A stretch of DNA of 64,000 nt, taken from NCBI GenBank assembly GCA_037440765.1, contig JBBITL010000018.1, positions 3,295 to 67,294 of the forward strand, written 5' to 3'. The notes beneath the pieces are model-generated. The model was not told the DNA's origin. It made no database searches and was given only the letters and a program-made list of their open reading frames with translations. The stretch is from Solibacteraceae bacterium (lineage in GTDB: Bacteria; Acidobacteriota; Terriglobia; Bryobacterales; Bryobacteraceae). Shown here one piece after another: positions 44,793 through 64,000 of the stretch. The translations under genes and the position numbers were made by a program. The number at the start of each line of letters is the position of its first letter. Position 1 is the first letter of the stretch.

Positions 44793-45560
44793 CTACTTTT
44801 TCGCCGGCGGCGCCGAACGAGTCCGGCGCAAGGAGATCTCAGCCGCGATCACTGAGTGCATGGCGGCCAGCCGCACGGCCTTGGGCGTGTCCGGCCGGCT
44901 CAGGATGTCGTAGAGCGCCATGGCCCTGGCCCGCTCCCCGGCGGCCAGCAGTCCCTCGGCGCAGTTCAGGCAGGCGTCGGCGACCGCAGGCCTCAATTCG
45001 CCTTTGGCCCTGGCCAGCGCATCCTGAAGCGGCTTGGCCGCCGCGGTGCTCCCGATCCGGCCCAGCGCCGCGGCGGCGGCCTTGGCCACCGCCGCGTCCG
45101 CCCCCGACATCAGCTTCGCGAGTTGGTCGACCGCCTTGGCGTCCTTGCGTTCCCCGATCGAGTTGATCACGCCCACCAGTGTCTTGCCCTTCGTCTTGAC
45201 GAGCGCGCCGCGCAGAGCCTCGTCCGCCGAGGCGTCCGGCATAGGCTCCAGCGCGAAGCGGGCGTAGTGCGAGAATTGCTCGTTGGCGAGCAATGCGGCC
45301 AGGGCCGGGACCGCTTCCCTGGAGCCCACCTGCGCCAGCTTCTTGCAGGCGACACTGATCTGGAAAGGGGTTGACTTCGGGTCCTTCAGGATCTGAACGA
45401 GTCGCGCCTCTGATAGTGGGAAAACCTTGTCCGCGTCAAGCTCCGGCGGGATTGGAGGCCGTTGCATGCCGCCAAACCCGCCGCCGCGTCCTCCACGGCC
45501 GGGTTCCGGGGGCGCGCCAGGCGGCTGTACGGGGGGCTTCATCTGTCCGGGTTCTTGCAT
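44793..45560 (-). CDS. HEAT-repeat protein with Gly/Pro/Arg-rich N-terminus (paralog of 62365..63195)
   Basis: Trimmed to MQEPGQMKPP.. (255 aa). PGRGGRGGGFGG, then HEAT/PBS-lyase-like helices (REAVPALAALL, DAKAVDQLAKLM). 20 nt after the oxidoreductase stop. Confidence 0.7.
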   Translation of the reverse strand: MQEPGQMKPPVQPPGAPPEPGRGGRGGGFGGMQRPPIPPELDADKVFPLSEARLVQILKDPKSTPFQISVACKKLAQVGSREAVPALAALLANEQFSHYARFALEPMPDASADEALRGALVKTKGKTLVGVINSIGERKDAKAVDQLAKLMSGADAAVAKAAAAALGRIGSTAAAKPLQDALARAKGELRPAVADACLNCAEGLLAAGERARAMALYDILSRPDTPKAVRLAAMHSVIAAEISLRRTRSAPPAKK

Positions 45561-45580
45561 CGTCGTCGTCTCCTCTCCTC

Positions 45581-46834
45581 TTATATCCGCCACGGCTCCC
45601 GCATGGCGCGCGTGCGCATGCGGTTGGCCTCTGCGTCGCCCACGAACTCCTCGCTGGCCGGGTCCCACGCCAGCTTCCGCCCGAGCTGGGCGGAGATCTG
45701 CGCCGCGTGGCATGTGATGTGCGTGTTGCATGTGGCAACGTGATTGGCGCTGGTCATCGACCTGGATTTCACGCAGTCCAGGAACTCCTGAAGGTGGTAA
45801 GCCAGCGCGAGGTTCGCCGGCCGGAAGGGGTGCAGCTCGCCCTTCAGGTTGTCGGACACCTCCACCTTCCCGCTGTCGCCCGTCTCGACCCATCCGTCGG
45901 ACCCCTCGAACCGCACGCTGCATGAGCCCAGGCCCATCCACGGTCTGGTGCCATGGTCGCCTCCCTGGTTGCGGATGACGAGCCTGACGCCGCTGGCATA
46001 CTGGCACAGGACGTAGTGGGGCTCGGCGGGGCTGTCCTTGCAGTAAGGAACGTATTCGACGGCCTGGGTGTGGTCCGCCCTGGCGGCCCACTGGCACAGG
46101 TCCACGGTGCGGGTGCCCCACTCCAGGATCGCGCCGCCGTGGAAGTCGAAGTAGGTGGCCCAGGAGGCGCCCCCGCGCGTGTAGTTGGAGTTGTAGGGCC
46201 GCATCGGACAGGGCCCCAGCCAGCGGTCCCAGTCCAGGACCTGCCGGTCCGGTTCAGGCTCGGCGGGCAGCCAGCTATGGGTGGTGATGGCAGACTGGCC
46301 GGCGATGGTCTGGGCGTGCATGGTCTGCAACCTGCCCAGCTTGCCGCTGCGGGCCAGTTCCACTGCGAACATGAAGTTCTGGCCGTTGCGACGCTGGCAG
46401 CCTGCCTGGTAGATGCGGCCGTAGCGCGCGAAAGTGTCGCGCAGCGCCTGGTCCTGCGCGATGGTGGAGCCACAGGGCTTCTCGCAGTAGACATCCATTC
46501 CCGCCTTGGCGGCGTAGATCGAGAGCAGGGCGTGCCAGCGCTCCCCGGCCGCGATCAGCAGCGCGTCAATGTCGTCCCGGGCCAGCAGTTCCTCGTACTC
46601 GCGGTACATCCTGGCGTCCTGGTTGCCGTACCGCTTGTCGATCATGCTCTTGACCACCTCGCGGCGGTCGTTTCTGACGTCGCACACGGCCACCATCTGC
46701 ACCTCGGGATAGCTGAGCAGGGCCTGCATGTCGCCCCCGCCGCGCCCGCCAATGCCGAGGCCCGCCATCACGATCTTGTCGCTGGGCGCGACCGCTCCCA
46801 CCCGCTGGCCCAGCACGCGGCTGGGCACTATCAT
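45581..46834 (-). CDS. Gfo/Idh/MocA-family oxidoreductase; Tat leader truncated (paralog of 60928..62334)
   Basis: 417 aa. GLGIGGRG Rossmann motif, CEKP motif, DWDRWLGPC, GLGSCSVRFEGSDGWVETGDSG, WDPASEEFVGDAEANRMRTRAMREPWR. The in-frame upstream codons ..LRQFPLCSPAAAP resemble the h-region of the paralog's Tat signal. Confidence 0.8.
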   Translation of the reverse strand: MIVPSRVLGQRVGAVAPSDKIVMAGLGIGGRGGGDMQALLSYPEVQMVAVCDVRNDRREVVKSMIDKRYGNQDARMYREYEELLARDDIDALLIAAGERWHALLSIYAAKAGMDVYCEKPCGSTIAQDQALRDTFARYGRIYQAGCQRRNGQNFMFAVELARSGKLGRLQTMHAQTIAGQSAITTHSWLPAEPEPDRQVLDWDRWLGPCPMRPYNSNYTRGGASWATYFDFHGGAILEWGTRTVDLCQWAARADHTQAVEYVPYCKDSPAEPHYVLCQYASGVRLVIRNQGGDHGTRPWMGLGSCSVRFEGSDGWVETGDSGKVEVSDNLKGELHPFRPANLALAYHLQEFLDCVKSRSMTSANHVATCNTHITCHAAQISAQLGRKLAWDPASEEFVGDAEANRMRTRAMREPWRI

Positions 46835-49573
46835 GGGGGCCGCCGCCGGGGAACATAGGGGAAATTGTCGTAGTTCATGGCCTTGGACCAGGTCCAGTTG
46901 CCGCCGATCTGGAGGCCGCCCCGCACCCGGCGGTTCAATTGCAGCTGCATGGAGTGGTAGTTGGTGCTCCCGTCAAAGCTCTGGTAGACAACGGCCTGGT
47001 AGCCGCGGAGCGGCCGGAGGAAGTTGTCCTGCATCAGCGTGCAGGGAGCCGCCAGGGGTAGCGGGCTGGCCGGCAGCGCCGTGGTCGGATCGCAGGAGGA
47101 AAGCTGGCGCTTGGTTCCGTAAGGCGCGGTGTTGACATCGATTGTCCGGCGCTGGTGACGGCCCCCGGTGCCGACGCAGGCAAGGTCCAGGAAGACGCCG
47201 AAACCCAGGTTCCGCTGGATGCCCAGGCTCCAGTTGTAGGTCGAGGGCAGAACCGGCGTCCGCTGGGTGGATACCGTGACGGTCGGCCCCAGGACTGCGG
47301 CCAGAGAGCCGGAAAACAGGGTGGTCACGCTGCTGTTGTAATAGAAGAGGTTGTTCTGCAAGGGTGAGATCTGGGCCGTGTTGAGGATGACGTCATCTCC
47401 GCCGCTGCGGTCGAACGTCATGCCGAAGCCTCCGCGTACGGCTGTGGTGCCGTTGCCGAAAACGTCGTAGGCGAAGCCGAACCGTGGTCCCACTCCGACG
47501 GGCGGCCTGTTCAGCAAGTGCTGCTCATAGACCTCAGTGGCCTGGTAGAACGTGCCGCTGCCCGGCCTCCCAGGTCCAGCGTCACCCGCCGGTTGACCCT
47601 CCAGTTGTCCTGGGCGAACCATTCCAACTGGCGATAACGGCCGAAGCTCCGGATGCGGTTGTCCGATTCCTGACAGCTCTGGAAGATCCCCATCAGAGCG
47701 TTGGAGAAGCCGTAGTTGCTGTCCAGAGGGTTGGTGGTCTGCGCCACGGGAGTGAAGTTGAAGGCGCCCGAGAACACCGACTCGCGTGGCGCGTTGCGAA
47801 TAGCGAATTCGCCGTACAGGCCGAACTTCAGGTTGTGCGTGCTCCGCACCCATGACAGGTTGTTGGTGAAGTTGTAGATGATGTTGCGCGCCCGGAATGG
47901 AAACCGCTGGTCGGCATTGAAGGTGGGGCTCGCCCCGGGCACGCCGTAGGTGACGGCGGGGACGTAGTTCTCAGGATTTATCCGCGGGTTGATCTGCGGC
48001 AGATTCAGCCCCAGCTTCACGCGGTCGTTCCTGTCCAGTTCCCGCTGCTCCAGATAAAGGTATTGCCGGGTGGAGTTGAACCCGAAGGTTGACTCATTGA
48101 CCAGCGACGGCGCGAACGTGTGAATCACCGTCGCCATGCTTCCGATAGCCTGGATCGCGTATTCCGCCCCGGTCTGGGGCCAGGTGTTGCTGGCCGAGAC
48201 GGACCCGGTGCCCCGCACGCTGCGGGCGCTTTGAAAGCTGCGGCTGAACCGGGCGTAGGCGATGGTCCGCGGCTCCACGTTCCAGTCCAGCCGCAAAGTG
48301 TCGGTATCCCTCGGGCTCTGGTCTTTGAAAGTTTCCGACCAGTTGTAGCGGAATTGGGAATCGAGCGCCCCCGCCTCGCATTCGGCCTGACTCGGATAGT
48401 TGCAGCGCGGCAGCATCTGCAACATCTTGCGCATGGCCGGGTCGAACAGCGACTGCGGCACCTGGTTGCCGGGGAAGGGGACGTTCGTCCCGGCACGGTG
48501 GTCGTTAATCGTGATAGCCCGGTTATTGGTGTCGCGTATCCTGCTGAAGTCGCCGTTCAACTCCGCTTGTGTCGGGACTTTCAGTTGAGCCGTAGCGGCG
48601 GGCGGGATCTGTTTCAGCCATTCCTGGGCCCAGAAGAAGAAGAGCCTCTCGCGGCTTCGATTGAAGCCGGTTCCGGGAATGAACAGAGGACCGCCGATGG
48701 TGTATCCGGGATTGTGAAAGCGATAGACGGCGCGCCTGGCCGTGCCATCCGGCTTGAGCCTGGTCCGCAGGGCGTTGTCGAACCAAGGGTTGGCATTGAA
48801 CCACTCATTGCGCTCGTACAGATAGGCAGTGCCGCTCAATTTCCTGGTGCCGGCCCGGGTGACCACGCTTACCATTCCGCCGGCCCGGGCGCCGTACTCG
48901 GCCTGGTAAGTGGCCAGCGCGACCTTGACTTCCCCTATGGTGTCCATGTTCGGCGAAAGAGCCCCCTGGTTGCCGCCCGTGCCTTGCGAGCCTGTGTCCG
49001 CGTTGGTGACGCAGTCCAGGGTGACAATGAGCTGTCCTCCTACGCCGCCGCTGATGGTCGTGCCCACCACTCCCGGCAGCACCCGCAGGGCGCTCAGGAA
49101 GGCGTTGCTTCCCGTGCGGTCCGCCGTGAGCGGGAGATCCGCGATCTGAGACTGGCTGACCGTCGCGATGCGCTCGCTGCTGTGTGTTTGCAGGCGCACC
49201 ATCTCCGCCTCCACGGAGACGCGGGTGCTAAGGTCGCCCAGTTCCAGCCGGATCTGGCCCAAGGCCGGACGCTCGTTGGAGCTAAGCCGGATGTCTTTCA
49301 GCTCGTATGTCTTGAAGCCCTGGCTTGCCACGTTTAGCTCATAAGTGCCGGCCACCAGCTCCGTGAAAACGAACCACCCCGACGTGTCGGTGGAGACCTG
49401 TCGCGTCTGTCCGGTCAGCGCATTGCGGACCTGGACCGGCGCTCCCACGATGATGGCCCGCCCGGATCCGCGACGTATCCGGACAGCTGGCCCGTCAAGC
49501 CCTGGCTGAACGCCGTTGGAACACCGGCCATCAAGAAGGCGAGAACCCCCGCCACCACTCTTGAGCTCCCCAT
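46831..49573 (-). pseudogene. TonB-dependent receptor (TBDR-2) with two frameshifts and a C-terminal truncation
   Basis: ATG 49573 gives MGSSRVVAGVLAFLMAGVPTAFSQGLTGQLSGYVADPGG. Frame is lost in the G/C run 49455-49465, then resumes as AIIVGAPVQVRNALTGQ.. (ORF 47511..49448). A second shift near 47560-47578 leads into ORF 46831..47853. The sequence ends at ..NWTWSKAMNYDNF, roughly 190 aa short of the other two receptors. Confidence 0.75.
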
Positions 49574-49609: not shown

Positions 49610-50521
49610 CTACAGCCGCTTCAGCCAGATGTCTCTGAAGGAGACCTTCAGGCTGGCGCCCTCGATTTGCAGGCCGATCAGCCCTTTGTCATGACGCTTG
49701 CTGTTGTCGTCGTCGATGGTGACGCTGATCAGCCGGCCGTTCAGAATGTGCAGGTACGTCCTGCCGCGAACCACGATGTGATACTGATTCCAGTCGCCCG
49801 GCTTGAAGCTCGCCTTCAGTTCGTCCGCGGTGGCGATGGTCGCGGCCAGAACGTTGGGTTGCCCCTCCCTCAGGACCACGACTTGGCCCGGGCGGGTCGT
49901 GATCCCGCGCTCGCCGGGCTGCCTGCCGCCCTCGAACAACTGGCCGGCCATGCTGCCGGCCATGTCGAAATCGGCCTGCGGCCCGAACAGATTCCACTTG
50001 CTGTAGGTGGCGACCGGCATGGGTCCGCCGCCCGGTCCGCGGCCCCCGGCAGGCTGTGCGGGGGAGCCGCCTCCGCCGGGCGCCCCCGCCGCCGGGCCAC
50101 CCCGCCCGGCGCCGAAGCTCGCGCTCGGCAGGACGTTGCGGCTGCGGTATTGAACACCGCTGTTGCCGCCCTGCCCCTCGATCTTGATCTCCAGCTTCAG
50201 CTCGAAGTCGGCCGGCACTCCGCCACGCCAGATGAGAAAGGTCGTGCCAGCCGGGTTCTCGGGGGTTGACTCCGCCACAATGACGCCATTCTCCACCCGC
50301 CAAATCTCCCTGGCGCCGTCCCAGCCTTCGAGCGATTTGCCGTCGAAGATCTGCTCGAACCCGGTGCGGTCGGCGAAATTCAACGTCAGCGGTGCACCGC
50401 CGGGACCGCCCCGTCCCATCCCACCCGTGGCCGGCGCCGGCGGCTGCTGGCCTGCCGCAACCTGCATGGCAGCCGCCAGCACGGCCGCCTTCATCAGGAA
50501 ACAGAGGTTATGTTTGCGCAT
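49610..50521 (-). CDS. Secreted DUF1080 (PF06439) protein
   Basis: 303 aa, signal peptide. IFDGKSLEGWDG, NSGVQYRS, GLIGLQIEG..VSFRDIWLKRL. Confidence 0.8.
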   Translation of the reverse strand: MRKHNLCFLMKAAVLAAAMQVAAGQQPPAPATGGMGRGGPGGAPLTLNFADRTGFEQIFDGKSLEGWDGAREIWRVENGVIVAESTPENPAGTTFLIWRGGVPADFELKLEIKIEGQGGNSGVQYRSRNVLPSASFGAGRGGPAAGAPGGGGSPAQPAGGRGPGGGPMPVATYSKWNLFGPQADFDMAGSMAGQLFEGGRQPGERGITTRPGQVVVLREGQPNVLAATIATADELKASFKPGDWNQYHIVVRGRTYLHILNGRLISVTIDDDNSKRHDKGLIGLQIEGASLKVSFRDIWLKRL

Positions 50522-50683: not shown

Positions 50684-51973
50684 CTACCAGAAGTGGGCGG
50701 CGACCAGCCGGGGCGGTCCGGAGCTCGCCCCCACCTGCCGCGTTGCGATGACGATCTGAATGTTCTTCCGGTCCCAGTCACTGGGAGCTGCCCGGGCCAG
50801 CTCCCGCATGTGCAGGTCGCTCGCCAGAAACTGGCCCGCGGCGCTGGTTGCATAAGTGGACAGGCCGGCTATGCTTACCAACGACTGCCCGGTGGTCTCA
50901 TTCCGCACCCGCGTTAGGAGCGCATACGCCTCGACCGGGCCGGTGACCAGCGAACTCACGGGCATCGACCAGAGCCTCTGGCCCGGCTTGTCCCGGTCGC
51001 TGATCCATGTGACGGTGACGGCCTCGTCCCTGTCCACTGTGAAGCGCCAGTCGCTGGTGACCAGGTTGAGCCACCGGACGGCAGGGCCGATGAATACCAC
51101 GGGCCCGGCCTTGAGGTCGTCGAATTGCAGCGAACCGGTGAAACGCGTCTGGAAGGCCTTTCCCCTGGCCCTCAAGGCCGAGGCGATGTCAACCAGCGCC
51201 GTAACGTCACCGATCGGCACCGACAGCGCTCTTCCGGCCACGGCCGCTCCCGGCTTCCCGGCCGACCTCTGGATTTCGGCAAGGGTTGAAGAGGAGACCG
51301 GGGCCGAATCCGCCGGCGCTGAAACCTCGGCCCCGACAGCCGGCGAAAGGCCGAACAGCACTGGACCCGGAGCCTGCAACACCGGCCGCCAGAACCGGTC
51401 GAACGCGCTTGGCGAGGCCCACGGCCGGTGCCAGGCCAGCGCCGCGATCAGCACCACGACAGCCACGACGGCCGGCCGCCACGTGACTCGCGGCCGTGCG
51501 GCGGGGCGGCGGGCGTCAGCGGGAACCGGAACGGGCGGCGCCCCGGAGGCCGCGTGGAACTCCGGCACGTATGAGCCCGGCGGGAGGTCAATCCGAAGCT
51601 CAGTCTCGCGGCCCGGCTCCCGGTAGTACTGGACAAGCCGCTTGCGGACCTCGACCGCCGAGGTTCGAACCACCGGGTCCTGGCTTGTGTCGTAATCCGC
51701 GTCTCTGGCGAAGACCTCAACCCCGATAACGCGCTCCTTCAGGCGGTCCAGGCGCCCTTCCAGAGCCTGCTGGACGGCGAACCGCAGAAGGCCCGTGTAT
51801 CGCCGGCTGTTGCGGAAATGGGCGCTGGCCAGCACCCGCTCCAGTTGGTCGCGGATGGCGATGCGCTCCGCCGGCGAACGCCTCGCCCCGGCGGGATGCT
51901 CCTGCCCCGGTTTCGGGCCGTTAAGGCCGCTCAGTGGCTCCTCCAACGTTCCACTCCTGGCGGCGACACCCAC
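50684..51973 (-). CDS. Membrane-anchored one-component regulator candidate: winged-helix-like N-domain, one TM segment, ~230-aa extracytoplasmic domain
   Basis: SAHFRNSRRYTGLLRFAVQQALEGRLDRLKERVIGVEVFARDADYDTSQDPVVRTSAVEVRKRLVQYY, TM segment AVVAVVVLIAALAW, C-terminal domain of unknown family. Confidence 0.5.
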   Translation of the reverse strand: MGVAARSGTLEEPLSGLNGPKPGQEHPAGARRSPAERIAIRDQLERVLASAHFRNSRRYTGLLRFAVQQALEGRLDRLKERVIGVEVFARDADYDTSQDPVVRTSAVEVRKRLVQYYREPGRETELRIDLPPGSYVPEFHAASGAPPVPVPADARRPAARPRVTWRPAVVAVVVLIAALAWHRPWASPSAFDRFWRPVLQAPGPVLFGLSPAVGAEVSAPADSAPVSSSTLAEIQRSAGKPGAAVAGRALSVPIGDVTALVDIASALRARGKAFQTRFTGSLQFDDLKAGPVVFIGPAVRWLNLVTSDWRFTVDRDEAVTVTWISDRDKPGQRLWSMPVSSLVTGPVEAYALLTRVRNETTGQSLVSIAGLSTYATSAAGQFLASDLHMRELARAAPSDWDRKNIQIVIATRQVGASSGPPRLVAAHFW

Positions 51974-52044: not shown

Positions 52045-53084
<1,040 letters not shown>

Positions 53085-53088
<4 letters not shown>

Positions 53089-55474: not shown

Positions 55475-55504
55475 GTTCCTCCTCCCATGCAGATCAAGCC
55501 GAAG

Positions 55505-56766: not shown

Positions 56767-56849
56767 AGCGGCCTCTCGCTGCTGTCCCCGAAGGGAGTCT
56801 ATCACGAAACGGTGCACACTCCAACATATGTTTCGCATTTCGAACCGTA

Positions 56850-56861
56850 TTGACCGGTCAA
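56850..56861. promoter_or_regulatory. Perfect 12-bp palindrome TTGACCGGTCAA; candidate auto-operator
   Basis: Read directly. Lies 18-29 nt downstream (minus strand) of a consensus TATAAT. Confidence 0.3.
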
Positions 56862-56878
56862 CAGGGGCCACCGAGAAC

Positions 56879-56906
56879 ATTATAGAGCGTTAATATTTTA
56901 TATAAA
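56879..56906 (-). promoter_or_regulatory. Candidate promoter of the regulator gene (TTTATA-16-TATAAT)
   Basis: Reverse complement reads TTTATA (56906-56901), 16-nt spacer, TATAAT (56884-56879), in an AT-rich patch. Confidence 0.35.
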
Positions 56907-57239
56907 GCCTATACTGTCAATAGATTCCGCAGGCATGGAGCATCCCGGCTGTGTTCCGCAATGCAAAATGGACTTTGCCCGCGCGGTTTTCCTTGCAGGC
57001 GCTTCTGTCCCGTGCCAGCATGCTGATAGATCGGTGGGAGTGGGCAGGGTCAGGAATTGCGGAGGGAGATGGCGAGCGAAGGGCACGTCGCCTACCGGCA
57101 TCACGGGGCCCCCTCGGAGGGGGAAGCAATCTTGGAAGTCTGTTTTCATACTGGCATATGGCCGCGCTTCAAAGTGGAGGGTTGTGCAGGATCTTCGGCC
57201 AAATGGCGACAACGTAACGGAAGGGAAGGGGTCAATGCG

Positions 57240-60200
57240 ATGAAGTCAATGAAAGCAGTGGTGTCTCTGCTTATCTTAATCTCGCTGCTGGCCGTGTTGC
57301 CGGCAGCCAACGCCCAGAGCATCACCGGGCAGGTCTCCGGACGGGTGGTCGATCCGGGCCGCGCCATCGTTGTCGGCGCCACCGTCCAGTTGACGGCGGA
57401 TCTCACGCAGCAGGTCCGCGAGTTTACCACGGATGCCCAGGGCACGTTCGTGTTCACCGGGCTGATACCTGGCAACTACAACCTGCGCGTCACGCACGCA
57501 GGTTTTCGGGCCTATGACCTGAAGGCCATTGCCGTCACCGCCCAGCAGAGGGTGAATCTTCCGGATGTCATCCTCACCGTGGGCGACGTGGCGACGTCGG
57601 TGGAGGTACAGGCCGCCGCGGTCTACGTGGCCACCGACAGCTCGGACCGCAGCGTGAGCATCGGTCTCACCCAGATTGCGGACACCCCGTTGCGGGGCCG
57701 GAACCCGCTGTCGCTCATCCTCACGCTGCCGGGGGTCCAGACGCTAGCCTCCAGCGACAACCGCGGCTGGGGCGGAGGGGGCATTCCGGCCGTCAACGGC
57801 GGGCAGACCGGCCAGGTGATCCTCAACATCGACGGCGTAGCCAGCCAGGACTCCGGCAATCTGAACCCCGGATACCTGTCGCCGAGCATCGACGCCATCG
57901 GCGAAGTGCGCCTGCTGGTATCCAACTACTCGGCCGAATATGGAGGGCGCACCGGCGGGCAGTACAACCTGACCATCAGGAGCGGCGGCGCAGACTATCG
58001 CGGGACCGCGTACTACTACTGGCGGCATGAGCAGTTCAACGCCAACGAGTGGTTCAACAACAAACTGCTGCGCCCCAAGCCGAGGTACCGGTTCCAGAAT
58101 TTCGGCGGCTCCATCGGGGGACCGCTGCTGATCCCCGGCACCGGGTTCAACCAGAGCCGGACCAAGGTGTTCTTCTTCTTCCTCGTGGATCACACGCGAA
58201 ACCGGGAGACCATCGACAACTCCTTCACCATGCCCTCGGCGATGGAGCGGGCCGGGGACTTCTCGGACACCAGGACTACGACCGGAGCCCTGATACCGAT
58301 CACCGATCCGACCACCAAGCTGCCCTACGCCGGAAACAGGATTCCCGCCAGCATGATCAGCCCCGCCGGGCAGGCTATGCTGAATCTGTTCCCGATGCCG
58401 GACCCGCTGGGATTCGCCCTCGATACATCCGGCGCGCGCAGGTTCAACTACCGGGCGTTGCTCGGCAGATCGCGCCCGAACGAGAACAAGATCCTGCGCG
58501 TGGACTACAACATCGGGCCGAAGACGACCTCCTTTGTGCGCCTGATGCAGGACTACCAGGCCGTTGACGGGTACGCCGGCACGGTTGGTCCTCAGGGCGG
58601 CAACTGGGGACAATTCCCTCACAGCTACAACGTCCGGGCCGCCGGGGCCGTGGGCACGCTGGTTCACACCTTCACTCCGACCCTGGTCAACGAATCCACC
58701 TGGGGAGTCAATCGCGGCAGGCAAGGGGTTAATCCTCTGGATGAGGTGACCAGCACCGCGACCGGCGGCGCCAAGACATACGAGGACAGCCTGCTGCCGC
58801 TCAAGGACGCAACAGGCAAGACCATTGCGCTGCCGCGCATCTTCCCCGGCAGCAACACCATGGGTCTGAAGCCCGGCGTGCACTTCGGCTTCCCCACCGG
58901 TTTCAGCGCGCAGTCGGCCGGCCAGACCATCTCAAGCGTCCCGGTGTTCCGCCACGATCCCCGCTGGCCGTTCGTGGGCACCGACACGGTGCAGACCATC
59001 TCCAACAAGACCACCTGGATCAGCGGCGCTCACAACCTGAAGGTGGGAGTCTACATTGAGCGGATGGCCCGCAACGTAAGCGTCTACTCGATCCACAACA
59101 CCGCCGGGACCTACTACTTCGGCTCGGACCGCGCTGCCCCCCTTGACACCGGGTTCCCGTACTCCAATGCGCTGATCGGCAGCATTTTCGCTTACGGCGA
59201 CGACAACATCAAGCAGATCAACCGCGCGCGCTACACGCAGATCGAGTGGTACGTGCAGGATACCTGGAAAGTCGTTCCCAGGCTCACGCTGGATCTCGGG
59301 TTGCGTTTCCACCGGGTGGGCGACCTGTATTCCAAGGGCGCCAAACTCGGCTTCTTCCGCGAAGCGGATTATGACCGCAGCAAGAGCGGGCAACTGCTGT
59401 TCCCGGCCTGCGCCGTCCCGACCGCCGGCACCTGCGCCACCGCCAACCGGATCGCCATCAACCCGGTGACCGGGGCGAGGTTCCCCTTCGTCCGGCAGGG
59501 CACCTTCGACAAGGCCACATACCCTGTCAACGGCATGCCATATTCGGGCATCCGCCTGTATGACAGCCGTTTCTTCAACATCGGCCCCATCAAGTTGGCC
59601 CCGCGCCTGGGCTTTGCCTACGACGTGTTCGGCAACGGGAAGACGGCTGTTCGCGGCGGCTTCGGCTCCATCGTGGGCCGCAACTGGACGGTGGACAGTA
59701 TCGGAGCGGGGGCTGACGGCATGGGCCCCATAAACGCGCCGCCCACGTTCCTTGCGCCGATTGTCCTGTACACCGACTTCAACAGCCTGGCGACGGCTGA
59801 CAACTACCTGACGCCCCAGACGGTGTTCGGCGGGCCGCAGGATGAGAAACCCATCACCACCTACAACTGGAGCTTCGGCATCCAGCATGAGGTCGGCCGC
59901 GGTATGATCGCAGACGTGTCCTACGTGGGCAACACCGTCCGGCATGGCTACGGCCAGGCGATCGACTTCAACGCCGTGCCGCCGTACACCACCTGGAACC
60001 CGACCGACGGCCAGATCCAGCGGTTCCGCGACCCCACCGGCGCCGGCTTCTACTCCACCGACCTGATCCGGTCGATGGTGGGCTTTAACGGTCTCAGCAG
60101 CATTCCCATATGGACGTTCCTCCGGAACGCGAACTATCACTCTCTCCAGACGCAGTTGAACCGCCGGACTGGCAACCTGCAATGGAATCTGAACTACACC

Positions 60201-60890
60201 TTCGCCAAGCAGATCACCTACAACAACACCACCGGCTTCCAGTGGGTGGACCGCAAGCTCAGCAAGTCGATCAGCGGCCGCAAGCACGCCGTTAATTTCA
60301 ACTTCGGATACGGGCTTCCGGCCGGCAGCAGTCTGCTTGGACGGCACGTGATCGCCCGGCACGCGCTTGACGGCTGGAGAATCAACGGCAACGGCGCCAT
60401 CTTCAGCGGCACGCCCTTCAGCTTCGGTTGCGGCGCCACGGCAGCCCCGGCCGGCCAGTGGACCGGCACGCCCACCGGCGGCATCCCGTTCCGCTGCCAG
60501 ATGGGAGACAGCATTTTCCTCCCGGCGGGGCAGTTCCCGTCGGCCACCGAGGACACCAGGTTGCAGTACGCGTTCAACGCGGACAACTTCCAGTTGCCGC
60601 CGCCGGCGTCGCTGGGCATCGGCAACACCCCGCCGGACTTGCTCTGGGGGCCAGGGGCGTTCAACCTTGATCTTTCCGTGGGCAAGCAGTTTCCGGTCGC
60701 GGAGGGCAGGTCGCTCGAGATCAGGGCCGAGTCCTTCAACACGCTGAACCATTTCAACCCCGGCAACCCGAACACCACAATCACCCGGCACTTCACGACC
60801 GGGGCTCAGACCAATGCCAGCTTTGGCATTATCAGCGGCGCGCAGGTGGGCTCCCGCCGGGTGATTCTATCGGCAAGATTCAGATTCTGA
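57240..60890 (+). CDS. TonB-dependent receptor with CarboxypepD_reg N-domain (TBDR-3)
   Basis: Trimmed to MKSMKAVVSLLILISLLAVLPAANAQ (RBS GGAAGGGAAGGGG upstream). GRVVDPGRAIVVGATVQLT, plug/barrel strings, C-terminal SARFRF. Confidence 0.9.
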   Translation: MKSMKAVVSLLILISLLAVLPAANAQSITGQVSGRVVDPGRAIVVGATVQLTADLTQQVREFTTDAQGTFVFTGLIPGNYNLRVTHAGFRAYDLKAIAVTAQQRVNLPDVILTVGDVATSVEVQAAAVYVATDSSDRSVSIGLTQIADTPLRGRNPLSLILTLPGVQTLASSDNRGWGGGGIPAVNGGQTGQVILNIDGVASQDSGNLNPGYLSPSIDAIGEVRLLVSNYSAEYGGRTGGQYNLTIRSGGADYRGTAYYYWRHEQFNANEWFNNKLLRPKPRYRFQNFGGSIGGPLLIPGTGFNQSRTKVFFFFLVDHTRNRETIDNSFTMPSAMERAGDFSDTRTTTGALIPITDPTTKLPYAGNRIPASMISPAGQAMLNLFPMPDPLGFALDTSGARRFNYRALLGRSRPNENKILRVDYNIGPKTTSFVRLMQDYQAVDGYAGTVGPQGGNWGQFPHSYNVRAAGAVGTLVHTFTPTLVNESTWGVNRGRQGVNPLDEVTSTATGGAKTYEDSLLPLKDATGKTIALPRIFPGSNTMGLKPGVHFGFPTGFSAQSAGQTISSVPVFRHDPRWPFVGTDTVQTISNKTTWISGAHNLKVGVYIERMARNVSVYSIHNTAGTYYFGSDRAAPLDTGFPYSNALIGSIFAYGDDNIKQINRARYTQIEWYVQDTWKVVPRLTLDLGLRFHRVGDLYSKGAKLGFFREADYDRSKSGQLLFPACAVPTAGTCATANRIAINPVTGARFPFVRQGTFDKATYPVNGMPYSGIRLYDSRFFNIGPIKLAPRLGFAYDVFGNGKTAVRGGFGSIVGRNWTVDSIGAGADGMGPINAPPTFLAPIVLYTDFNSLATADNYLTPQTVFGGPQDEKPITTYNWSFGIQHEVGRGMIADVSYVGNTVRHGYGQAIDFNAVPPYTTWNPTDGQIQRFRDPTGAGFYSTDLIRSMVGFNGLSSIPIWTFLRNANYHSLQTQLNRRTGNLQWNLNYTFAKQITYNNTTGFQWVDRKLSKSISGRKHAVNFNFGYGLPAGSSLLGRHVIARHALDGWRINGNGAIFSGTPFSFGCGATAAPAGQWTGTPTGGIPFRCQMGDSIFLPAGQFPSATEDTRLQYAFNADNFQLPPPASLGIGNTPPDLLWGPGAFNLDLSVGKQFPVAEGRSLEIRAESFNTLNHFNPGNPNTTITRHFTTGAQTNASFGIISGAQVGSRRVILSARFRF

Positions 60891-60895
60891 GGATG

Positions 60896-60915
60896 GGCAG
60901 GTCGTCGGACCTGCC
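60896..60915 (+). other. 8-bp GC hairpin (GGCAGGTC-gtcg-GACCTGCC) between TBDR-3 and the oxidoreductase gene
   Basis: Perfect inverted repeat read directly, 6 nt after the TGA and 13 nt before the ATG. No U-tract. Confidence 0.3.
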
Positions 60916-60927
60916 AGGGACAACTCG

Positions 60928-62334
60928 ATGAAAGAGAAAAAGAACAAGAGGGTTTCACGAAGGAGCTTTGTGACTGCTACGGGCGCCGCTGCTGCGGCGC
61001 CCCTTCTTTTGCCGGGGACCGTCCTCGGGCAAGCCGGAGGCGCGCCTCCGGGCCAGGCGCCCGGCCCGCCGGGTGGACAGGGCGCCGGGCCAGCGGTGGT
61101 CGCCCGGGCCGGTCTGCTCGACAGGATCGTTTTCGCCGGCATAGGTATCCGCGGACGCGGCATGAACGTCCTGCGGCAGATGATCACCGACGACCGGGTG
61201 CATTTCACGGCCATCGCCGACGTGCAGGAGAGTTCCCGCGAGGCCGTGAAGAGCTTCGTGGACGGATACTACGGCAACAACGAGTGCCGGATGTACCGCG
61301 ATCCGGCGGAGATTATGGCGCGCCAGGACGTGGACGCCCTGCTGATCGCCACCAGCGACCGCTGGCACGGCCCCATGGGGATCTGGGCCGCCCAGGCCGG
61401 CAAGGACATGTTCTGCGAGAAGCCGGCAGCCATGTCCATAGCGGAGAGCTACGCCCTGGCGGACAATGTGCGCCGCTATGGCGTCGTATACCAGTCCGGC
61501 GCGCAGCGCAAGAATCAGTTCGCCTTCGAGTTTGCGGTGGGGCTGGCCCGCAGCGGCATGCTCGGCAGGCTGCTGGCCGTGCACGCCGATACCGCCATCG
61601 GCCTGGGGACGGTCGACGAGGGCGGACACGGATGGTGGCCGGAAGAGAAGCCGGAGCCGGACCCGCTGGTGATCGATTGGGACAAGTGGCTTGGGCCGTG
61701 CCTGTGGCGGCCCTGGAATTCCCGCTACCCCACCCAGGGCCGCGGCCAGTTCTGGGATTTCCACGCGGGCCTGCTGGAGTGGTCCTCTCACACCGTCGCC
61801 ATGGCGCAATGGGCGGCCGACATGGAGCACACCGAGCCCGTCGAGTACGTGCCCGAGGGCGGCGATTTCAGAGGAGACGGCCTGATCAACCGGTACACGA
61901 TCTACTGCAAGTACGCCAACGGGGTCCAACTGATCCTGCGCAATCATAGCTGGAGAGGCCTTGGTTCATGCAGCAACCTGTTCGAGGGCACCGATGGGTG
62001 GGTCGAAACGGGCGACAGCGGCAGGATCGAGGTGTCGCCGAACCTGAAGTCGCTGGTGCCCACCAGGACGGGGGTCAGGCTAGACCCCACCGGCGAGCAC
62101 ATAAGGGAGTTCATCCACAGCATCCGTTCGCGGATACCGCCGCGGGCGAATGCCGAAGTGACCGCCCACACCCACGTGGCCTCCCACGCGGCCTGGATCG
62201 CGGCGCAGTTGAACCGCAAGGTTGTGTGGGATCCGGCCAAGCGCGCGTTCATAGGCGACGAGGAGGCCAACCGCATGCGCAGCCGGGCCTACCGGGAGCC
62301 GTGGCGTGTGGAATCGCTGGCTACCACGATGTAG
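60928..62334 (+). CDS. Tat-exported Gfo/Idh/MocA-family oxidoreductase (possibly GH109-like NAD-dependent glycosidase)
   Basis: 468 aa. Twin-arginine leader KRVSRRSFVTATGAAAAAPLLL, Gly/Pro linker, GIGIRGRG, CEKP, DWDKWLGPC, GLGSCSNLFEGTDGWVETGDSG. Confidence 0.85.
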   Translation: MKEKKNKRVSRRSFVTATGAAAAAPLLLPGTVLGQAGGAPPGQAPGPPGGQGAGPAVVARAGLLDRIVFAGIGIRGRGMNVLRQMITDDRVHFTAIADVQESSREAVKSFVDGYYGNNECRMYRDPAEIMARQDVDALLIATSDRWHGPMGIWAAQAGKDMFCEKPAAMSIAESYALADNVRRYGVVYQSGAQRKNQFAFEFAVGLARSGMLGRLLAVHADTAIGLGTVDEGGHGWWPEEKPEPDPLVIDWDKWLGPCLWRPWNSRYPTQGRGQFWDFHAGLLEWSSHTVAMAQWAADMEHTEPVEYVPEGGDFRGDGLINRYTIYCKYANGVQLILRNHSWRGLGSCSNLFEGTDGWVETGDSGRIEVSPNLKSLVPTRTGVRLDPTGEHIREFIHSIRSRIPPRANAEVTAHTHVASHAAWIAAQLNRKVVWDPAKRAFIGDEEANRMRSRAYREPWRVESLATTM

Positions 62335-62364
62335 GCGGGAGCATAGGATAAGGAGAGAACGAAA

Positions 62365-63195
62365 ATGCAAGCACCTGGACAGACGCAACAAGTACCGGGA
62401 GCGCCGGGACGCGGAGAACCCGGGCGCGGGGCCGCAGGGCAGGACCAGGCGCCCGCGCGAGGAGCAGGACGCGGGCCGGCGCCCAAGGTTCCTCCGGAAT
62501 TCGATGCCCTTCCCATCTGGACCTCGGATGCGCCGAAACTTGTCGCCATGGTGAAGGACCCCAATTCGACCCTTTTTCAGAAGGCGATCGCGTGCAAGAA
62601 GTTGTCCATCTCCGGAGGAAGGGAGGCGATAGCGCCCATGGCGGCGCTGCTGAATCATCCTCAACTGGCGTGTTACGCCCGCTTCGGGATGGAGCCGAAC
62701 CCGGATCCGTCCGTGGACGACGCATTCCGCGCCGCTCTTCCCACGCTGAAGGGCAAGCTTCAGGTGGGCGTGATTCATTCGATCGGCTTCCGCAAGGACG
62801 CCAAGGCGCTGGACGCCCTCGGCAAGCTGATCGGCGACAAAGACCCCGAGGTCGCCGGGGCCGCCGCGGCCTCGGTGGGAATGATCGGCGGGCCACAGGC
62901 CGCCAAGATCTTGCAGGCGGCTCTGAAGACCACCAAGGCGCCCGTGTTTCCAGTGGTGGCCCGTGCCTGCCTGATGTGCACAGAGGGGTTGATGGCGAGC
63001 AACCGCGCCCGGGCGCTGGAGCTGTACACCGAGCTCAGCGCAACCTCGATGCCCAAGCCGGTGCGCCTGGCGGCGCTGCGCGTGCTGAACGCCGCGGGGC
63101 CCGCGCCTCCCGGCGCCAGGAAGTGGCCGGCGCCGACCGGCGCCGCCGCCGATGCCGACACCAGCGGCTTCCTGGGCCGCGGGCGGCAGAACTAG
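62365..63195 (+). CDS. HEAT-repeat protein with Gly/Pro/Arg-rich N-terminus
   Basis: 276 aa. RBS AAGGAGAG. PGRGEPGRGAAGQ..ARGAGRGP, then HEAT-like helices (REAIAPMAALL, DAKALDALGKLI). No hydrophobic signal peptide. Confidence 0.7.
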   Translation: MQAPGQTQQVPGAPGRGEPGRGAAGQDQAPARGAGRGPAPKVPPEFDALPIWTSDAPKLVAMVKDPNSTLFQKAIACKKLSISGGREAIAPMAALLNHPQLACYARFGMEPNPDPSVDDAFRAALPTLKGKLQVGVIHSIGFRKDAKALDALGKLIGDKDPEVAGAAAASVGMIGGPQAAKILQAALKTTKAPVFPVVARACLMCTEGLMASNRARALELYTELSATSMPKPVRLAALRVLNAAGPAPPGARKWPAPTGAAADADTSGFLGRGRQN

Positions 63196-63283
63196 TGCCC
63201 GGGTTGCCGGGATGAAGGGTGACGGCGCCAGCGGCCCTGTGCGGCCGCTGGCGCCCCAGCGATTCACGGGAGACGAGGCATTC

Positions 63284-64000
63284 ATGCGAAAAGCACAACT
63301 TCTTTTGGCGGTCGTGGTGGTGGTGGCGGTTGCGGTGGTGGCTCAGCAGCGGGGGGGCCGAGGCGTGGGTGCGCCTGACGACAGCGCTGGCTTCGAGGCG
63401 ATCTTTGACGGCAAGTCGCTGGCCAATTGGGACGGCGAGCCGGGCTTCTGGCGGGTCGCCGATGGCTGCATCGTCGGTGAAACCACGGCCGACAATGTGT
63501 TGAAGCAGAACACGTTTTTGGTCTGGCGTGGAGGATCGGTCCGGGATTTTGAGCTGAAGCTGGAGTACAGGCTCACCGAGGCCGCCAACAGCGGCGTCCA
63601 GTACAGGAGCGTGATGGTGCCCGAGGTTTCCAAGTGGGCCATGCGCGGCTACCAGGCGGACATGGACGGCGCCAACAACTACACCGGCATGGTCTTTGAA
63701 GAACGCGGGCGCGGGTTCCTGGCGCCCCGGGGCAGGTTCAACCGGCTGGCCGGGGACAAGACCATGAAGCAGGTGGCCATTCTCGGCGAGGCGGACACCC
63801 TCAAGGCGGCCATCAAGACCGGCGCGGAATGGAACCAGATGCACATTATCGCCAAGGAGAACATGCTGGTTCACGTCATCAACGGACATGTCACGGCGGT
63901 CTTCCTGGACGAGGAGCCGCAGGGCCGCGCCACGGAGGGACTGCTTGGCCTCCAGCTTCACGTCGGCAAGCCCATGAAGAACGAGTTCCGCAACATTCTG
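63284..64000 (+). CDS. Secreted DUF1080 (PF06439) protein, 3' end outside the window
   Basis: Not in the ORF track (no stop inside the window); I translated it by hand from ATG 63284: MRKAQLLLAVVVVVAVAVVAQQ..FEAIFDGKSLANWDGEPGFWRVADGCIVGE..FLVWRGG..FELKLEYRL..ANSGVQYRS...LLGLQLHVG. Confidence 0.8.
   Translation, partial: MRKAQLLLAVVVVVAVAVVAQQRGGRGVGAPDDSAGFEAIFDGKSLANWDGEPGFWRVADGCIVGETTADNVLKQNTFLVWRGGSVRDFELKLEYRLTEAANSGVQYRSVMVPEVSKWAMRGYQADMDGANNYTGMVFEERGRGFLAPRGRFNRLAGDKTMKQVAILGEADTLKAAIKTGAEWNQMHIIAKENMLVHVINGHVTAVFLDEEPQGRATEGLLGLQLHVGKPMKNEFRNIL

Follow-up and report, generated by a model that had tools for sequence, protein, structure and literature searches.

In a 64-kb window (the whole stretch of DNA analysed), two inverted arms each encode a TonB-dependent receptor (TBDR), a Gfo/Idh/MocA oxidoreductase of the PF19051 type, a small HEAT protein and an exported DUF1080 protein (Pfam). 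The arms are two anciently diverged copies of one gene set, of which one copy is partly broken, and the conserved unit within this set is the pair of Tat-oxidoreductase and HEAT protein. The cutting of sugar linkages via prior oxidation, known from gut bacteria, is probably also encoded in this soil acidobacterium. The new element is a previously undescribed HEAT-repeat partner, which lies almost always next to the exported oxidising enzyme.

Arm-to-arm protein identity was 33-51%. Pairwise alignment gave 49% identity for GFO-L and GFO-R (E 3e-136), 51% for HEAT-L and HEAT-R (E 4e-65), 37% for DUF1080-L and DUF1080-R and 33-36% for TBDR-2 and TBDR-3. At the DNA level the arms formed collinear inverted blocks (I1-I6) with 70-79% identity, far above chance, confirming the inverted paralogy described in a first-pass annotation of the sequence. 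Gene content and order of both arms were also as annotated there (Pfam), and all motifs quoted (CEKP, DWD.WLGPC, GLGSCS..FEG.DGWVETGDSG, KDP.ST.FQ...ACKKL and the rest) were seen in the pairwise alignments. As had been stated, no classical glycoside hydrolase was found between 44.8 and 64 kb; a Pfam search of this interval gave no glycoside-hydrolase family.

The right arm lies on the plus strand. TBDR-3 (57240..60890) is an intact receptor (PF25183, 453.6 bits, positions 1-836 of 838), consisting of a CarboxypepD_reg domain, a plug and the full 838-position barrel. It is followed by GFO-R (60928..62334; PF01408 and PF19051), with the twin-arginine leader RVSRRSFV, which is kept in the orthologues. 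HEAT-R (62365..63195), a 276-aa HEAT-repeat protein (PF13646, 49.6 bits), has no signal peptide and ends in the tail WPAPTGAAADAD.SGFLGR, conserved in the family alignment. DUF1080-R (63284..64000, continuing beyond the window end; PF06439, 121.4 bits) starts with the leader MRKAQLLLAVVVVVAVAVVA. The gaps of 37, 30 and 88 nt between the four genes correspond to operon-like spacing.

The left arm, on the minus strand, is by its sequence a decaying copy, with a receptor pseudogene and a dehydrogenase predicted to be no longer exportable. TBDR-2 (46831..49573), annotated at first as a receptor, proved to be a pseudogene split over three reading frames (three-frame translation; tblastn with four intact TBDRs). 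It contains a frameshift near 49460 and, near 47563, an out-of-frame internal deletion of about 65-72 codons, and its 3' end, with the last ~220 codons, is gone; the Pfam model OMP_b-brl_4 matched at positions 1-389 and 415-634 of 838 only. The 3' deletion extends into the adjoining GFO-L (45581..46834; PF01408 and PF19051) and has cost it the twin-arginine leader, the junction being near 46840-46850. Compared with the leaders of 52+19 relatives, just the end of the h-region (AAAPMIVPS) is left, and no start codon was found upstream of this remnant. The frame is otherwise intact and every family-invariant residue is kept. The earlier assignment of both arm oxidoreductases to the Tat pathway thus stands for GFO-R but not for GFO-L, and GFO-R is the only predicted Tat substrate of the two. 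HEAT-L (44793..45560; 255 aa; PF13646, 45.5 bits) has a Pro/Gly/Gln-rich N-terminus without signal peptide, and its orthologue pairs were found in loci L022, L023 and L025. DUF1080-L (49610..50521; PF06439, 114.8 bits) has a hydrophobic N-terminal leader and a Gly-rich insertion of ~40 aa. The source is a metagenome-assembled genome. Another assembly breaks inside TBDR-2, and a second assembly carries the same TBDR-2/GFO-L sequence with identical left-arm lesions.

In the loci compared, the Tat-oxidoreductase gene was followed directly by the HEAT gene in 24 of 25 genome loci, Planctomycetota included, and the two were adjacent in 52 of the 57 metagenome loci with enough upstream sequence. All paired oxidoreductases contain a canonical Tat motif. 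A hydrophobic N-terminal leader was present in 85 of 91 long-form HEAT homologues, indicating an ancestral function of the module outside the cytoplasm, and in none of 120 close relatives of HEAT-R (the Bryobacterales type). Since the HEAT protein has no signal peptide here, it may leave the cytoplasm together with the oxidoreductase: the Bryobacterales type would have lost its own signal peptide and would travel to the periplasm in a complex with GFO-R (Tat hitch-hiking). A cytoplasmic role fits the same data, namely that of a dedicated TorD/DmsD-like chaperone that proofreads the oxidoreductase for Tat export or loads its cofactor, rather than that of a co-exported subunit. The lack of a signal peptide in the 120 close relatives, the strict adjacency to a Tat substrate and the all-helical repeat structure are consistent with such a chaperone, to which we nevertheless assign only a minor chance in view of the export leaders of the long-form homologues and of the fusions of HEAT modules to exported DUF1080 and ThuA domains described below.

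The solved structures and NCBIfam models closest to the arm oxidoreductases were those of the AL3/BT2158 glycoside 3-dehydrogenases. AL3 (8tdf) was the best PDB match, with a profile E-value of 1.2e-26 (next best 4e-16), and the motif block WD.W/F.GP..RPYN...WDF is common to AL3 and the arm enzymes. BT_2158_fam was the best NCBIfam match (GFO-L 115 bits, GFO-R 88 bits; cut-off 750), and the sequence alignment with AL3/BT2158 covers the N-terminal half only. GFO-R is, as judged from these comparisons, a distant relative of the AL3/BT2158 enzymes, far below the family cut-off. Clustering with inositol or sugar dehydrogenases, which the first-pass annotation had named as an argument against its own reading, was not found (profile search, NCBIfam).

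Two other activities of the oxidoreductases were considered. The Tat-GFO/HEAT pair could be a periplasmic redox-neutral oxidoreductase of sugars or polyols, working on free monosaccharides instead of glycosides in the style of Zymomonas GFOR or inositol dehydrogenase, with DUF1080 and TBDR incidental. GFOR is the paradigm of a cofactor-loaded Gfo/Idh/MocA enzyme exported by Tat, and inositol 2-dehydrogenase was the second-best NCBIfam model. The AF2 model of GFO-R (pLDDT 78) moreover gave a generic Gfo fold in Foldseek, with AL3 at rank 2 in a flat ranking across the superfamily that did not separate it from inositol, GFOR or DgpA-type enzymes. Against this, the profile search placed AL3 ~10 orders of magnitude above inositol dehydrogenase or GFOR, and the shared motif block is specific. 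Alternatively, GFO-L and GFO-R could each be a complete NAD-dependent glycosidase, of the GH109 or GH4 type, performing oxidation, elimination, water addition and reduction in one active site, so that DUF1080 would be unneeded and HEAT a helper or specificity subunit. GH109 (6t2b) corresponds in fold, size (~450 aa) and Tat leader, but the profile E-value of this structure (1.2e-10) was far weaker than that of AL3.

The genes surrounding the pair bear on both alternatives. DUF1080 was its sole recurrent neighbour, with 8 of 69 neighbouring proteins, at 7 of 23 loci (about 30%); any other family occurred at most three times, and a TBDR neighbours the pair in about 10% of loci. In three cases (P0426, L089 and L102) DUF1080 is fused to a HEAT module, in both orientations, and a Tat-GFO gene stands immediately upstream of the L089 fusion. 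ThuA-HEAT fusions were also found (P0482, P0494 and P0425); ThuAB makes 3-keto-disaccharides (PMC8121099). DUF1080 (PF06439) enzymes have been shown experimentally to be 3-keto-alpha-glucoside lyases and 2-hydroxy-3-keto-glucal hydratases (PMC8121099; doi 10.1101/2024.03.25.586180), and the similarity of the arm DUF1080 proteins to BT2157 was remote (E 1e-3). However, neither DUF1080 nor a TIM-barrel lyase was found nearby at 16 of the 23 genome GFO-HEAT loci and at about 76 of 80 metagenome loci searched with an Acidobacteria-trained HMM, which a free-sugar oxidoreductase or a self-contained glycosidase would account for. The enrichment and fusions of DUF1080 speak against the former, as do the ThuA-HEAT fusions, which point to 3-keto chemistry too, and we consider it unlikely. 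The same DUF1080 association favours a multi-enzyme route over a GH109- or GH4-type glycosidase, which appears quite improbable.

With moderate confidence we propose that the right arm encodes a periplasmic oxidise-eliminate-hydrate-reduce route acting on glycosides, with HEAT as an accessory, next to a decaying left arm. TBDR-3 would import a glycoside or oligosaccharide. GFO-R would fold and load NAD(P) in the cytoplasm, exit by Tat and oxidise the sugar at C3. DUF1080-R would then eliminate the aglycone or leaving sugar and hydrate the resulting 2-hydroxy-3-keto-glycal, and the reduced cofactor of GFO-R would be recycled by reducing the 3-keto-sugar product. Both the substrate class and the oxidation at C3 are inferred. 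This route is known from Bacteroides BT2156-2160 and Alistipes AL1-5 (Liu 2021, PMC8121099; Nasseri 2024, doi 10.1101/2024.03.25.586180), a nearer precedent for the chemistry proposed here than GFOR, GH109 and DgpA/DgpBC, which had been put forward. The import, oxidation and cleavage suggested before is therefore a known mechanism, made plausible by the closeness to AL3/BT2158 and the DUF1080 neighbours and fusions. In AL3-type enzymes the cofactor is bound tightly and is regenerated on 3-keto sugars (doi 10.1101/2024.03.25.586180). Nasseri 2024 (doi 10.1101/2024.03.25.586180) found that obligate complexes are not how the AL/BT enzymes work, whereas the HEAT protein is proposed here as a periplasmic scaffold or accessory subunit linking the dehydrogenase with the DUF1080 enzyme. 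The locus encodes no exported TIM-barrel beta-lyase.

Between the arms, on the minus strand, lies an operon that had been described as cupin, Gfo/Idh/MocA and TIM barrel; the genes are as described, but the cupin call rests on a low-confidence model and an invariant pattern. The xylose-isomerase-like TIM barrel (52045..53088; PF01261, 39.3 bits) had no PDB sequence match and is translationally coupled to the upstream dehydrogenase gene (ATGA overlap). As the sole TIM barrel is leaderless and its gene belongs to a cytoplasmic operon of its own, a role as the lyase partner in the periplasm is excluded. The cytoplasmic dehydrogenase (53085..54248) is levoglucosan-dehydrogenase-like (NF052479, full-length match of 346 bits, cut-off 650; PDB matches 4h3v, 1e-94, and LGDH 6a3f, 2e-80). 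P404 (54260..55474) is a very widespread uncharacterised protein, with 8000 of 8000 scored candidates at E<=1e-5 and no match by sequence in Pfam, NCBIfam or PDB. Its HxH...E...H pattern is invariant (H126, H127, H129, Q130, E145 and H213) and its model (pLDDT only 60) matched Salmonella PMI and many cupins in Foldseek, so that P404 is probably a sugar isomerase, a double cupin resembling type-I phosphomannose isomerases.

Of the two regulators annotated here, both on the minus strand, one was confirmed: an IclR-HTH and sugar-binding (periplasmic-binding-protein fold) protein (55627..56880; PF09339, PF13407), upstream of the operon, with a likely true start near 56766. The other, a 429-aa protein (50684..51973) with the hydrophobic segment VVAVVVLIAALAW, is possibly a membrane-anchored regulator and had no family match in Pfam or NCBIfam. 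The IclR-type gene is divergent from TBDR-3, and the intergenic region (56767..57239) contains an AT-rich, promoter-like patch (56880-56930). Promoter matches in this region were no commoner than chance; their position alone is suggestive. The operon probably converts a keto-, anhydro- or unusual sugar after its import, following the same logic of oxidation at C3, and any link between centre and arms is inferred.

Co-conservation of the 19-kb super-locus proposed earlier was not recovered: only GFO and HEAT are obligate, and the central operon, which recurs in L032, was not found linked to the arms in other genomes. In a carbohydrate-rich region, modules independent of one another (two GFO-HEAT pairs, TBDR-DUF1080 pairs and the cytoplasmic sugar operon) could have come to lie side by side by chance, with no joint regulation or shared substrate. 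That no larger combination is conserved agrees with this, as do the many unrelated contexts of GFO-R/HEAT-R orthologues, the occurrence of P404 orthologues both with and without Gfo/TIM genes and the decay of the left arm. However, the four-gene right-arm set was found again in L012 and L018, where orthologues of TBDR-3 (51% and 66%, respectively) adjoin those of GFO-R; together with the sugar-binding regulator divergent from TBDR-3 and the three TBDR-DUF1080 pairs within 64 kb, this makes pure chance rather doubtful. The third of these pairs lies outside the two arms on the plus strand (7867..12001), with the TBDR at 7867-11181 (PF25183, 810.9 bits) directly followed by the DUF1080 gene at 11168-12001 (PF06439, 116.5 bits).

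The G + C content of the window was 66%, and the nearest relatives of its proteins were those of Bryobacterales/Bryobacteraceae MAGs (Acidobacteriota). Real reading frames were picked by their third-position G + C content in combination with Pfam. From position 56880 to 43269 all genes run on the minus strand. This run starts with an IclR-HTH/sugar-binding regulator (55627-56880, likely start near 56766) and continues with the central operon, which comprises P404, a cupin-like protein of 404 aa (54260-55474), a Gfo/Idh/MocA dehydrogenase (53085-54248) and a TIM barrel (52045-53088), whose gene has an ATGA overlap with that of the dehydrogenase. After a 429-aa protein without a family match (50684-51973), the left arm follows, with DUF1080-L (49610-50521, PF06439), the remnant of the TonB-dependent receptor TBDR-2 (46831-49573), the Gfo/Idh/MocA oxidoreductase GFO-L (45581-46834, PF01408 and PF19051) and its HEAT-repeat partner HEAT-L (44793-45560); beyond HEAT-L the run contains a pyruvate kinase gene. 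The right arm lies on the plus strand and consists of TBDR-3 (57240-60890), GFO-R (60928-62334, PF01408 and PF19051), HEAT-R (62365-63195) and DUF1080-R (63284 to beyond 64000, PF06439), with intergenic gaps of 37, 30 and 88 nt. A spacer of ~470 nt with an AT-rich patch separates the regulator from the divergent TBDR-3. Promoter and terminator scans gave matches at chance level.

The gene identities, the gene order and the motifs aligned by eye in the first-pass annotation proved correct in Pfam searches and pairwise alignments. Its statement that the 19 kb holds no classical glycoside hydrolase also stands, as Pfam found no glycoside hydrolase family there. Near the locus a single classical glycoside hydrolase was seen, a GH127 beta-L-arabinofuranosidase-like protein that carries a PKD domain (37757-40189, plus strand) and lies ~4.6 kb left of the arms. 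The receptors of the arms are of the CarboxypepD_reg/OMP_b-brl_4 type, and none of the proteins encoded between 44.8 and 64 kb had a SusD-family Pfam match.

Between the arms, protein identity was 49% for the oxidoreductases (E 3e-136), 51% for the HEAT proteins and 37% for the DUF1080 proteins; the receptors were 33-36% identical to each other. At the DNA level the arms share collinear inverted blocks of 70-79% identity. The L-type and R-type each have separate orthologues elsewhere: the R-type occurs across Bryobacterales with 66-89% identity, the L-type was found in one other locus (L022), and two Planctomycetota pairs (L023 and L025) are nearer to the L-type than to the R-type. The arms are anciently diverged paralogues and not a recent inverted duplication. 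In addition, DUF1080-L has a mid-domain insertion of ~40 Gly/Pro/Ala-rich residues (residues ~130-170) that is absent from DUF1080-R.

The left arm is damaged, which the first-pass annotation had missed. TBDR-2 is spread over three reading frames on the minus strand: the signal peptide and first ~40 codons (49546-49460), codons ~41-690 (49463-47562) and codons ~763-997 (47565-46864). It carries three lesions: the frame shifts near 49460, ~65-72 internal codons are deleted out of frame near 47563, and approximately the last 220 codons are missing. Only positions 1-389 and 415-634 of the 838 in the Pfam barrel model are covered. The truncated 3' end joins directly onto GFO-L, whose first possible start is the Met in AAAPMIVPSRVLGQ..GAVAPSDKIVMAGLGIG. 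In relatives the equivalent stretch reads ..P.IVPAS.LG.DG.V.PSERIVLGGIGIG, and it is preceded by a canonical (S/T)RRxFL(K/R) in 52 metagenomic relatives and in the Planctomycetota loci L023 and L025; in 19 GFO-R-type orthologues the leader reads (V/F)TRR(G/R)FGK. Because TBDR-2 runs into GFO-L while the relatives keep an RR leader before the same stretch, a deletion of ~0.75 kb probably took the 3' end of TBDR-2, the spacer and the n-region of the GFO-L Tat leader. GFO-L retains every family-invariant residue, so either the deletion is recent or GFO-L would now be cytoplasmic.

A second assembly (GCA_964426535.1) contains the same sequence with all lesions included. Two contigs of this assembly (L113 and L114) end exactly at window position 47926, inside TBDR-2, which suggests coverage or strain heterogeneity at that point. 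An apparent difference between the two assemblies at 45585-45639 was a masked run of N and not real. Of the two cassettes, the left one seems to be decaying, a warning that symmetric gene content need not mean function.

The HEAT protein was the best marker for comparison with other genomes, with 468 close homologues at E ≤ 1e-5; all of the 120 listed were ~230-295 aa long and 70-100% identical. A GFO gene with PF19051 was located immediately upstream of the HEAT gene, on the same strand, in 24 of 25 genome-derived loci. The right-arm set of four genes recurs, rearranged, in L012 and L018, with receptors 51% and 66% identical to TBDR-3. The 19-kb "super-locus" proposed in the first-pass annotation is not conserved as a whole: the neighbourhood comparison keeps only GFO followed by HEAT as a unit, and the central operon is unlinked to arm genes in other loci. 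Fusion of the pair by stop readthrough or frameshifting was considered and rejected, since two stops separate GFO-R and HEAT-R, which share a frame, and GFO-L and HEAT-L do not share one. A description of a HEAT protein paired with a Tat oxidoreductase was not found in the literature. New here is the obligate, widespread pair of a Tat dehydrogenase and a HEAT protein, present in this genome in a minimal form without a signal on the HEAT protein.

Searches by tblastn and jackhmmer with the DUF1080 proteins of the window missed divergent DUF1080 neighbours (e.g. in L003), and a Pfam census was used instead. Among the 69 proteins encoded within two genes on each side of 23 GFO-HEAT loci, PF06439 was found 8 times, in 7 loci; each other family occurred at most 3 times, and TBDR barrels twice. 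The three copies in the window scored 114.8, 121.4 and 116.5 bits against PF06439 (gathering cut-off 26.8). Both arm copies have N-terminal hydrophobic leaders, read directly from the sequence, which point to export. Their similarity to AL2/BT2157 is confined to residues 50-131 (8tda, E 1e-3), and no NCBIfam model matched them at E ≤ 1.

A HEAT profile gave 15,269 matches at E ≤ 1e-3, and 1,170 at E ≤ 1e-30, among 1.84 billion representatives. The dominant form is ~650 aa long, with the homologous module at residues ~30-230. A metagenome scan with this long form yielded 80 loci, 57 of which had enough upstream sequence; in 52 of these 57 a GFO-family gene ends just upstream of the HEAT gene, each time (52/52) with a canonical Tat leader. 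The neighbours of the long-form pair were heterogeneous (6 extra Gfo proteins, 3 TIM barrels and 2 ThuA proteins among 117). HEAT modules were also found fused to DUF1080, either downstream of it (P0426) or upstream (L102, and L089, which has a leader and directly follows a Tat-GFO gene), and to the C-terminal side of ThuA (P0482, P0494 and P0425). A candidate GFO-HEAT fusion, P0439 (Pfam GFO_C2 and HEAT), was rejected: two genes are joined in it through a wrong-frame Pro/Ser/Ala-rich linker, showing that frameshifted gene calls can imitate Rosetta-stone fusions. In the HEAT family alignment CxxC was not conserved and CxxCH did not occur. The Planctomycetota homologue in L023 (9704-12337, 811 aa) carries a C-terminal beta-rich domain of ~150 aa (GDYVTAWQVAGPY...) without a Pfam match.

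Among the relatives listed, a hydrophobic N-terminal leader was present in 85 of 91 long HEAT forms and in none of 120 Bryobacterales-type proteins, which start with MQxPGQTQ followed by a Pro/Gly/Gln-rich stretch. Such Gly/Pro/Gln-rich low-complexity linkers after the leader are typical of the exported proteins of this organism (window 60928-61120, 62365-62500, 50400-50521 and 63284-63400), and HEAT-L and HEAT-R retain the linker but have no leader in front of it, as would be expected if only the leader had disappeared. That the leaderless HEAT protein acts as a cytoplasmic chaperone is a live alternative. Co-export with its Tat substrate is nevertheless the most economical reading, because the presumed ancestral form has a leader of its own and the Bryobacterales form has none. 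It would resemble known Tat hitch-hikers, such as PaoABC (PMC4273604) and the FAD-glucose dehydrogenase with its signal-bearing small subunit (PMC6719666), where one subunit has the RR leader; here a leaderless HEAT protein is encoded beside an RR-leader GFO (24/25 loci). In contrast to these systems, the putative passenger is a HEAT-repeat protein and the putative carrier an NAD(P) enzyme.

PF01408 was found in both GFO-L and GFO-R; their YCEKP and FCEKP motifs align, and E164, K165 and P166 are invariant in the family alignment. GFO-R has the predicted Tat leader RVSRRSFV followed by an Ala-rich h-region, which is kept in its orthologues; in GFO-L the leader has been lost. By sequence, the best solved relatives of both proteins are 8tdf and 8tdh, annotated in Foldseek as the Alistipes glucoside-3-dehydrogenase AL3. 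With a family profile of 30 sequences, AL3 (8tdf) was matched at E 1.2e-26, in an alignment that takes in the block LDWDKWLGPC.WRPYNSRY......FWDFHAGLL, and the next match was a myo-inositol dehydrogenase at 4e-16; the profile is thus nearer to AL3/BT2158 than to the other characterised Gfo/Idh/MocA enzymes compared. The best NCBIfam model for both was BT_2158_fam 'glycoside 3-dehydrogenase' (NF058561), with 115 bits for GFO-L and 88 bits for GFO-R against a cut-off of 750, over profile positions ~17-263 of 487 (the N-terminal half). GFO-L and GFO-R are distant relatives of AL3/BT2158 and lie outside that equivalog family. An AF2 model of GFO-R (pLDDT 78) ranked AL3 second in Foldseek, where AL3 had the best query TM-score (0.59); this search recovered the generic Gfo/Idh/MocA fold only and did not discriminate between families.

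Two other enzymes of this fold are comparable. GH109 (Akkermansia 6t2b) is of similar size, has a Tat-type leader and also uses oxidation-assisted glycoside cleavage, as proposed for GFO, but it performs all steps in one enzyme, unlike the proposed GFO/DUF1080 route, and its match, judged on the PDB comparison only, was weaker than that of AL3 (E 1.2e-10 versus 1.2e-26). Zymomonas GFOR, which holds a tightly bound nicotinamide cofactor, is a Gfo/Idh/MocA enzyme exported by Tat, as predicted for GFO-R; its similarity to GFO is much weaker (E ~5e-11), its substrates are free sugars and it lacks partners of the HEAT and DUF1080 kinds.

In gut Bacteroidota, the stepwise cleavage of glycosides by oxidation (the 3-keto route) has only recently been established, for the BT2156-2160/AL1-5 systems (Liu et al. 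2021, PMC8121099; Nasseri et al. 2024 preprint, doi 10.1101/2024.03.25.586180; PDB 8tda, 8tdf, 8tdh). There, a Tat-exported Gfo/Idh/MocA enzyme, whose cofactor does not exchange, oxidises C3. Elimination is carried out by an exported TIM-barrel enzyme on beta-glycosides and by the DUF1080 protein on alpha-glycosides; the latter protein also hydrates the glycal. Reduction of the 3-keto-sugar regenerates the cofactor, a step that was rate-limiting in vitro; the in-vivo route was left open (PMC8121099; doi 10.1101/2024.03.25.586180). The earlier proposal that a glycoside is imported, oxidised and then cleaved is partly supported by our results, but it is essentially this known pathway, so that the mechanism itself is not new.

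Both systems have a Gfo/Idh/MocA enzyme with Tat export (predicted in the case of GFO-R), an exported DUF1080 protein and a second, cytoplasmic Gfo, and neither has a classical glycoside hydrolase. They differ in several respects. The GFO scores lie far below the equivalog cut-off of the BT2158/AL3 family. The exported TIM-barrel beta-lyase AL1/BT2156 is absent here, the only PF01261 protein (52045-53088) being leaderless and part of the cytoplasmic centre. The genes here are coupled to an acidobacterial TonB-dependent receptor and have an obligate HEAT partner, which is not described for the BT2156-2160/AL1-5 clusters. The regulator is IclR-type instead of SusR/DUF6377, and the cytoplasmic Gfo is LGDH-like and not BT2159-like (BT_2159_fam 29.7 bits, levoglucosan dehydrogenase 346 bits). 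A further parallel is ThuAB of Agrobacterium/Sinorhizobium, a dehydrogenase that forms 3-keto-disaccharides, as cited in PMC8121099. It also combines a Gfo/Idh/MocA-type dehydrogenase with a non-catalytic partner, and ThuA domains are fused to the HEAT module elsewhere; no ThuA gene is present in the window, however, where the partner is HEAT and the predicted location periplasmic via Tat.

Three independent lines connect GFO-HEAT with extracytoplasmic 3-keto-sugar chemistry: AL3/BT2158 are the nearest characterised relatives, DUF1080 alone is enriched among the neighbours and occurs in fusions with HEAT in either order, and ThuA-HEAT fusions exist. In the intact right arm, the substrate would be taken up in a TonB-dependent manner and oxidised at C3 by GFO-R; DUF1080-R would then perform elimination and hydration and GFO-R would reduce the keto-sugar, with HEAT as a putative accessory or scaffold subunit. 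As no exported TIM-barrel lyase is present, alpha-linked substrates may be preferred, or the DUF1080 protein may be of broader scope. As a tentative extension, which we regard as possible rather than probable, PF19051 Tat-GFO and HEAT may form a widespread, undescribed and obligate two-subunit periplasmic glycoside 3-dehydrogenase. In it, HEAT would keep a non-exchangeable NAD(P) turning over, either by positioning DUF1080 or ThuA at the dehydrogenase, which would then receive the labile 3-keto-sugar back directly, or by providing a docking site for an electron acceptor; the Bryobacterales HEAT protein, with ~190 structured residues and its own leader lost, would hitch-hike on the GFO Tat leader.

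The locus seems to represent the form that the gut 3-keto system takes in soil acidobacteria and in PVC bacteria; it differs from the gut system by TonB-dependent import, the missing TIM-barrel beta-lyase and the strictly co-conserved HEAT protein, elsewhere fused to DUF1080 or ThuA. If HEAT is a scaffold or co-exported subunit, this could explain a very large number of the HEAT and Gfo/Idh/MocA gene pairs in Acidobacteriota and Planctomycetota and improve predictions of CAZy-blind carbohydrate turnover in soil, and a concrete protein pair would be available for studies of cofactor recycling and Tat hitch-hiking.

The dehydrogenase of the central operon matched levoglucosan dehydrogenase (NF052479) over positions 2-386 of 386 with 346 bits, without reaching the cut-off of 650; its PDB matches were 4h3v (1e-94) and the LGDH 6a3f (2e-80). 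It is translationally coupled to the leaderless PF01261 TIM barrel, for which there was no PDB sequence match even at E ≤ 10 and no NCBIfam match; these searches gave no connection of the barrel to AL1, LgdB, OGE or DgpBC. An LGDH-like enzyme with a PF01261 partner recalls the oxidation-then-elimination logic of the levoglucosan pathway LgdA/LgdB1/LgdB2/LgdC (PMC7676230, PMC10066097), but here a single TIM barrel is present, a PMI-like cupin stands in place of LgdB2/LgdC and the LGDH score is below 650.

P404 belongs to a very abundant family, with at least 8000 significant homologues, many of them 77-92% identical, and without a Pfam, NCBIfam or PDB sequence match; it merits its own family definition. 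Approximately 190 of its 404 positions are invariant, including His, Gln and Glu residues. Its model reached a pLDDT of only 60 owing to the shallow alignment (all homologues being ~80% identical), and its weak similarity in structure to type-I phosphomannose isomerase and to cupins is only suggestive of a PMI/cupin-like protein. The order P404-Gfo-TIM recurs in one locus (L032) and P404-Gfo-MFS in two (L030 and L031), and P404 occurs alone in four (L026-L029). The centre resembles a cytoplasmic pathway that would process an unusual sugar by oxidation and elimination or by isomerisation; it is linked to the arms by position only. In another Bryobacteraceae MAG, a P404 paralogue of 31% identity (L018, 2003-3304) adjoins a TBDR-DUF1080/GFO-HEAT cluster; this is the sole hint that a P404-like protein may have a link to arm genes.

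Elsewhere in the window, three long plus-strand frames with high GC3 have little or no family assignment. No family match was found for those of 524 aa (30304-31878) and 385 aa (40239-41396), and the 1033-aa frame (20673-23771) had only weak NHL and TIG matches. A third sugar-utilisation cluster, at 3986-14198, contains no Tat-GFO or HEAT gene. It comprises an MFS sugar transporter (3986-5365), a PfkB kinase (5570-6604) and a GntR/LacI-type regulator (6559-7692) on the minus strand, followed on the plus strand by an intact TBDR (7867-11181), directly after it the third DUF1080 gene (11168-12001, PF06439), and a GlcNAc-2-epimerase-like gene (12181-12999), and ends with a RhaT-like permease on the minus strand (13134-14198).
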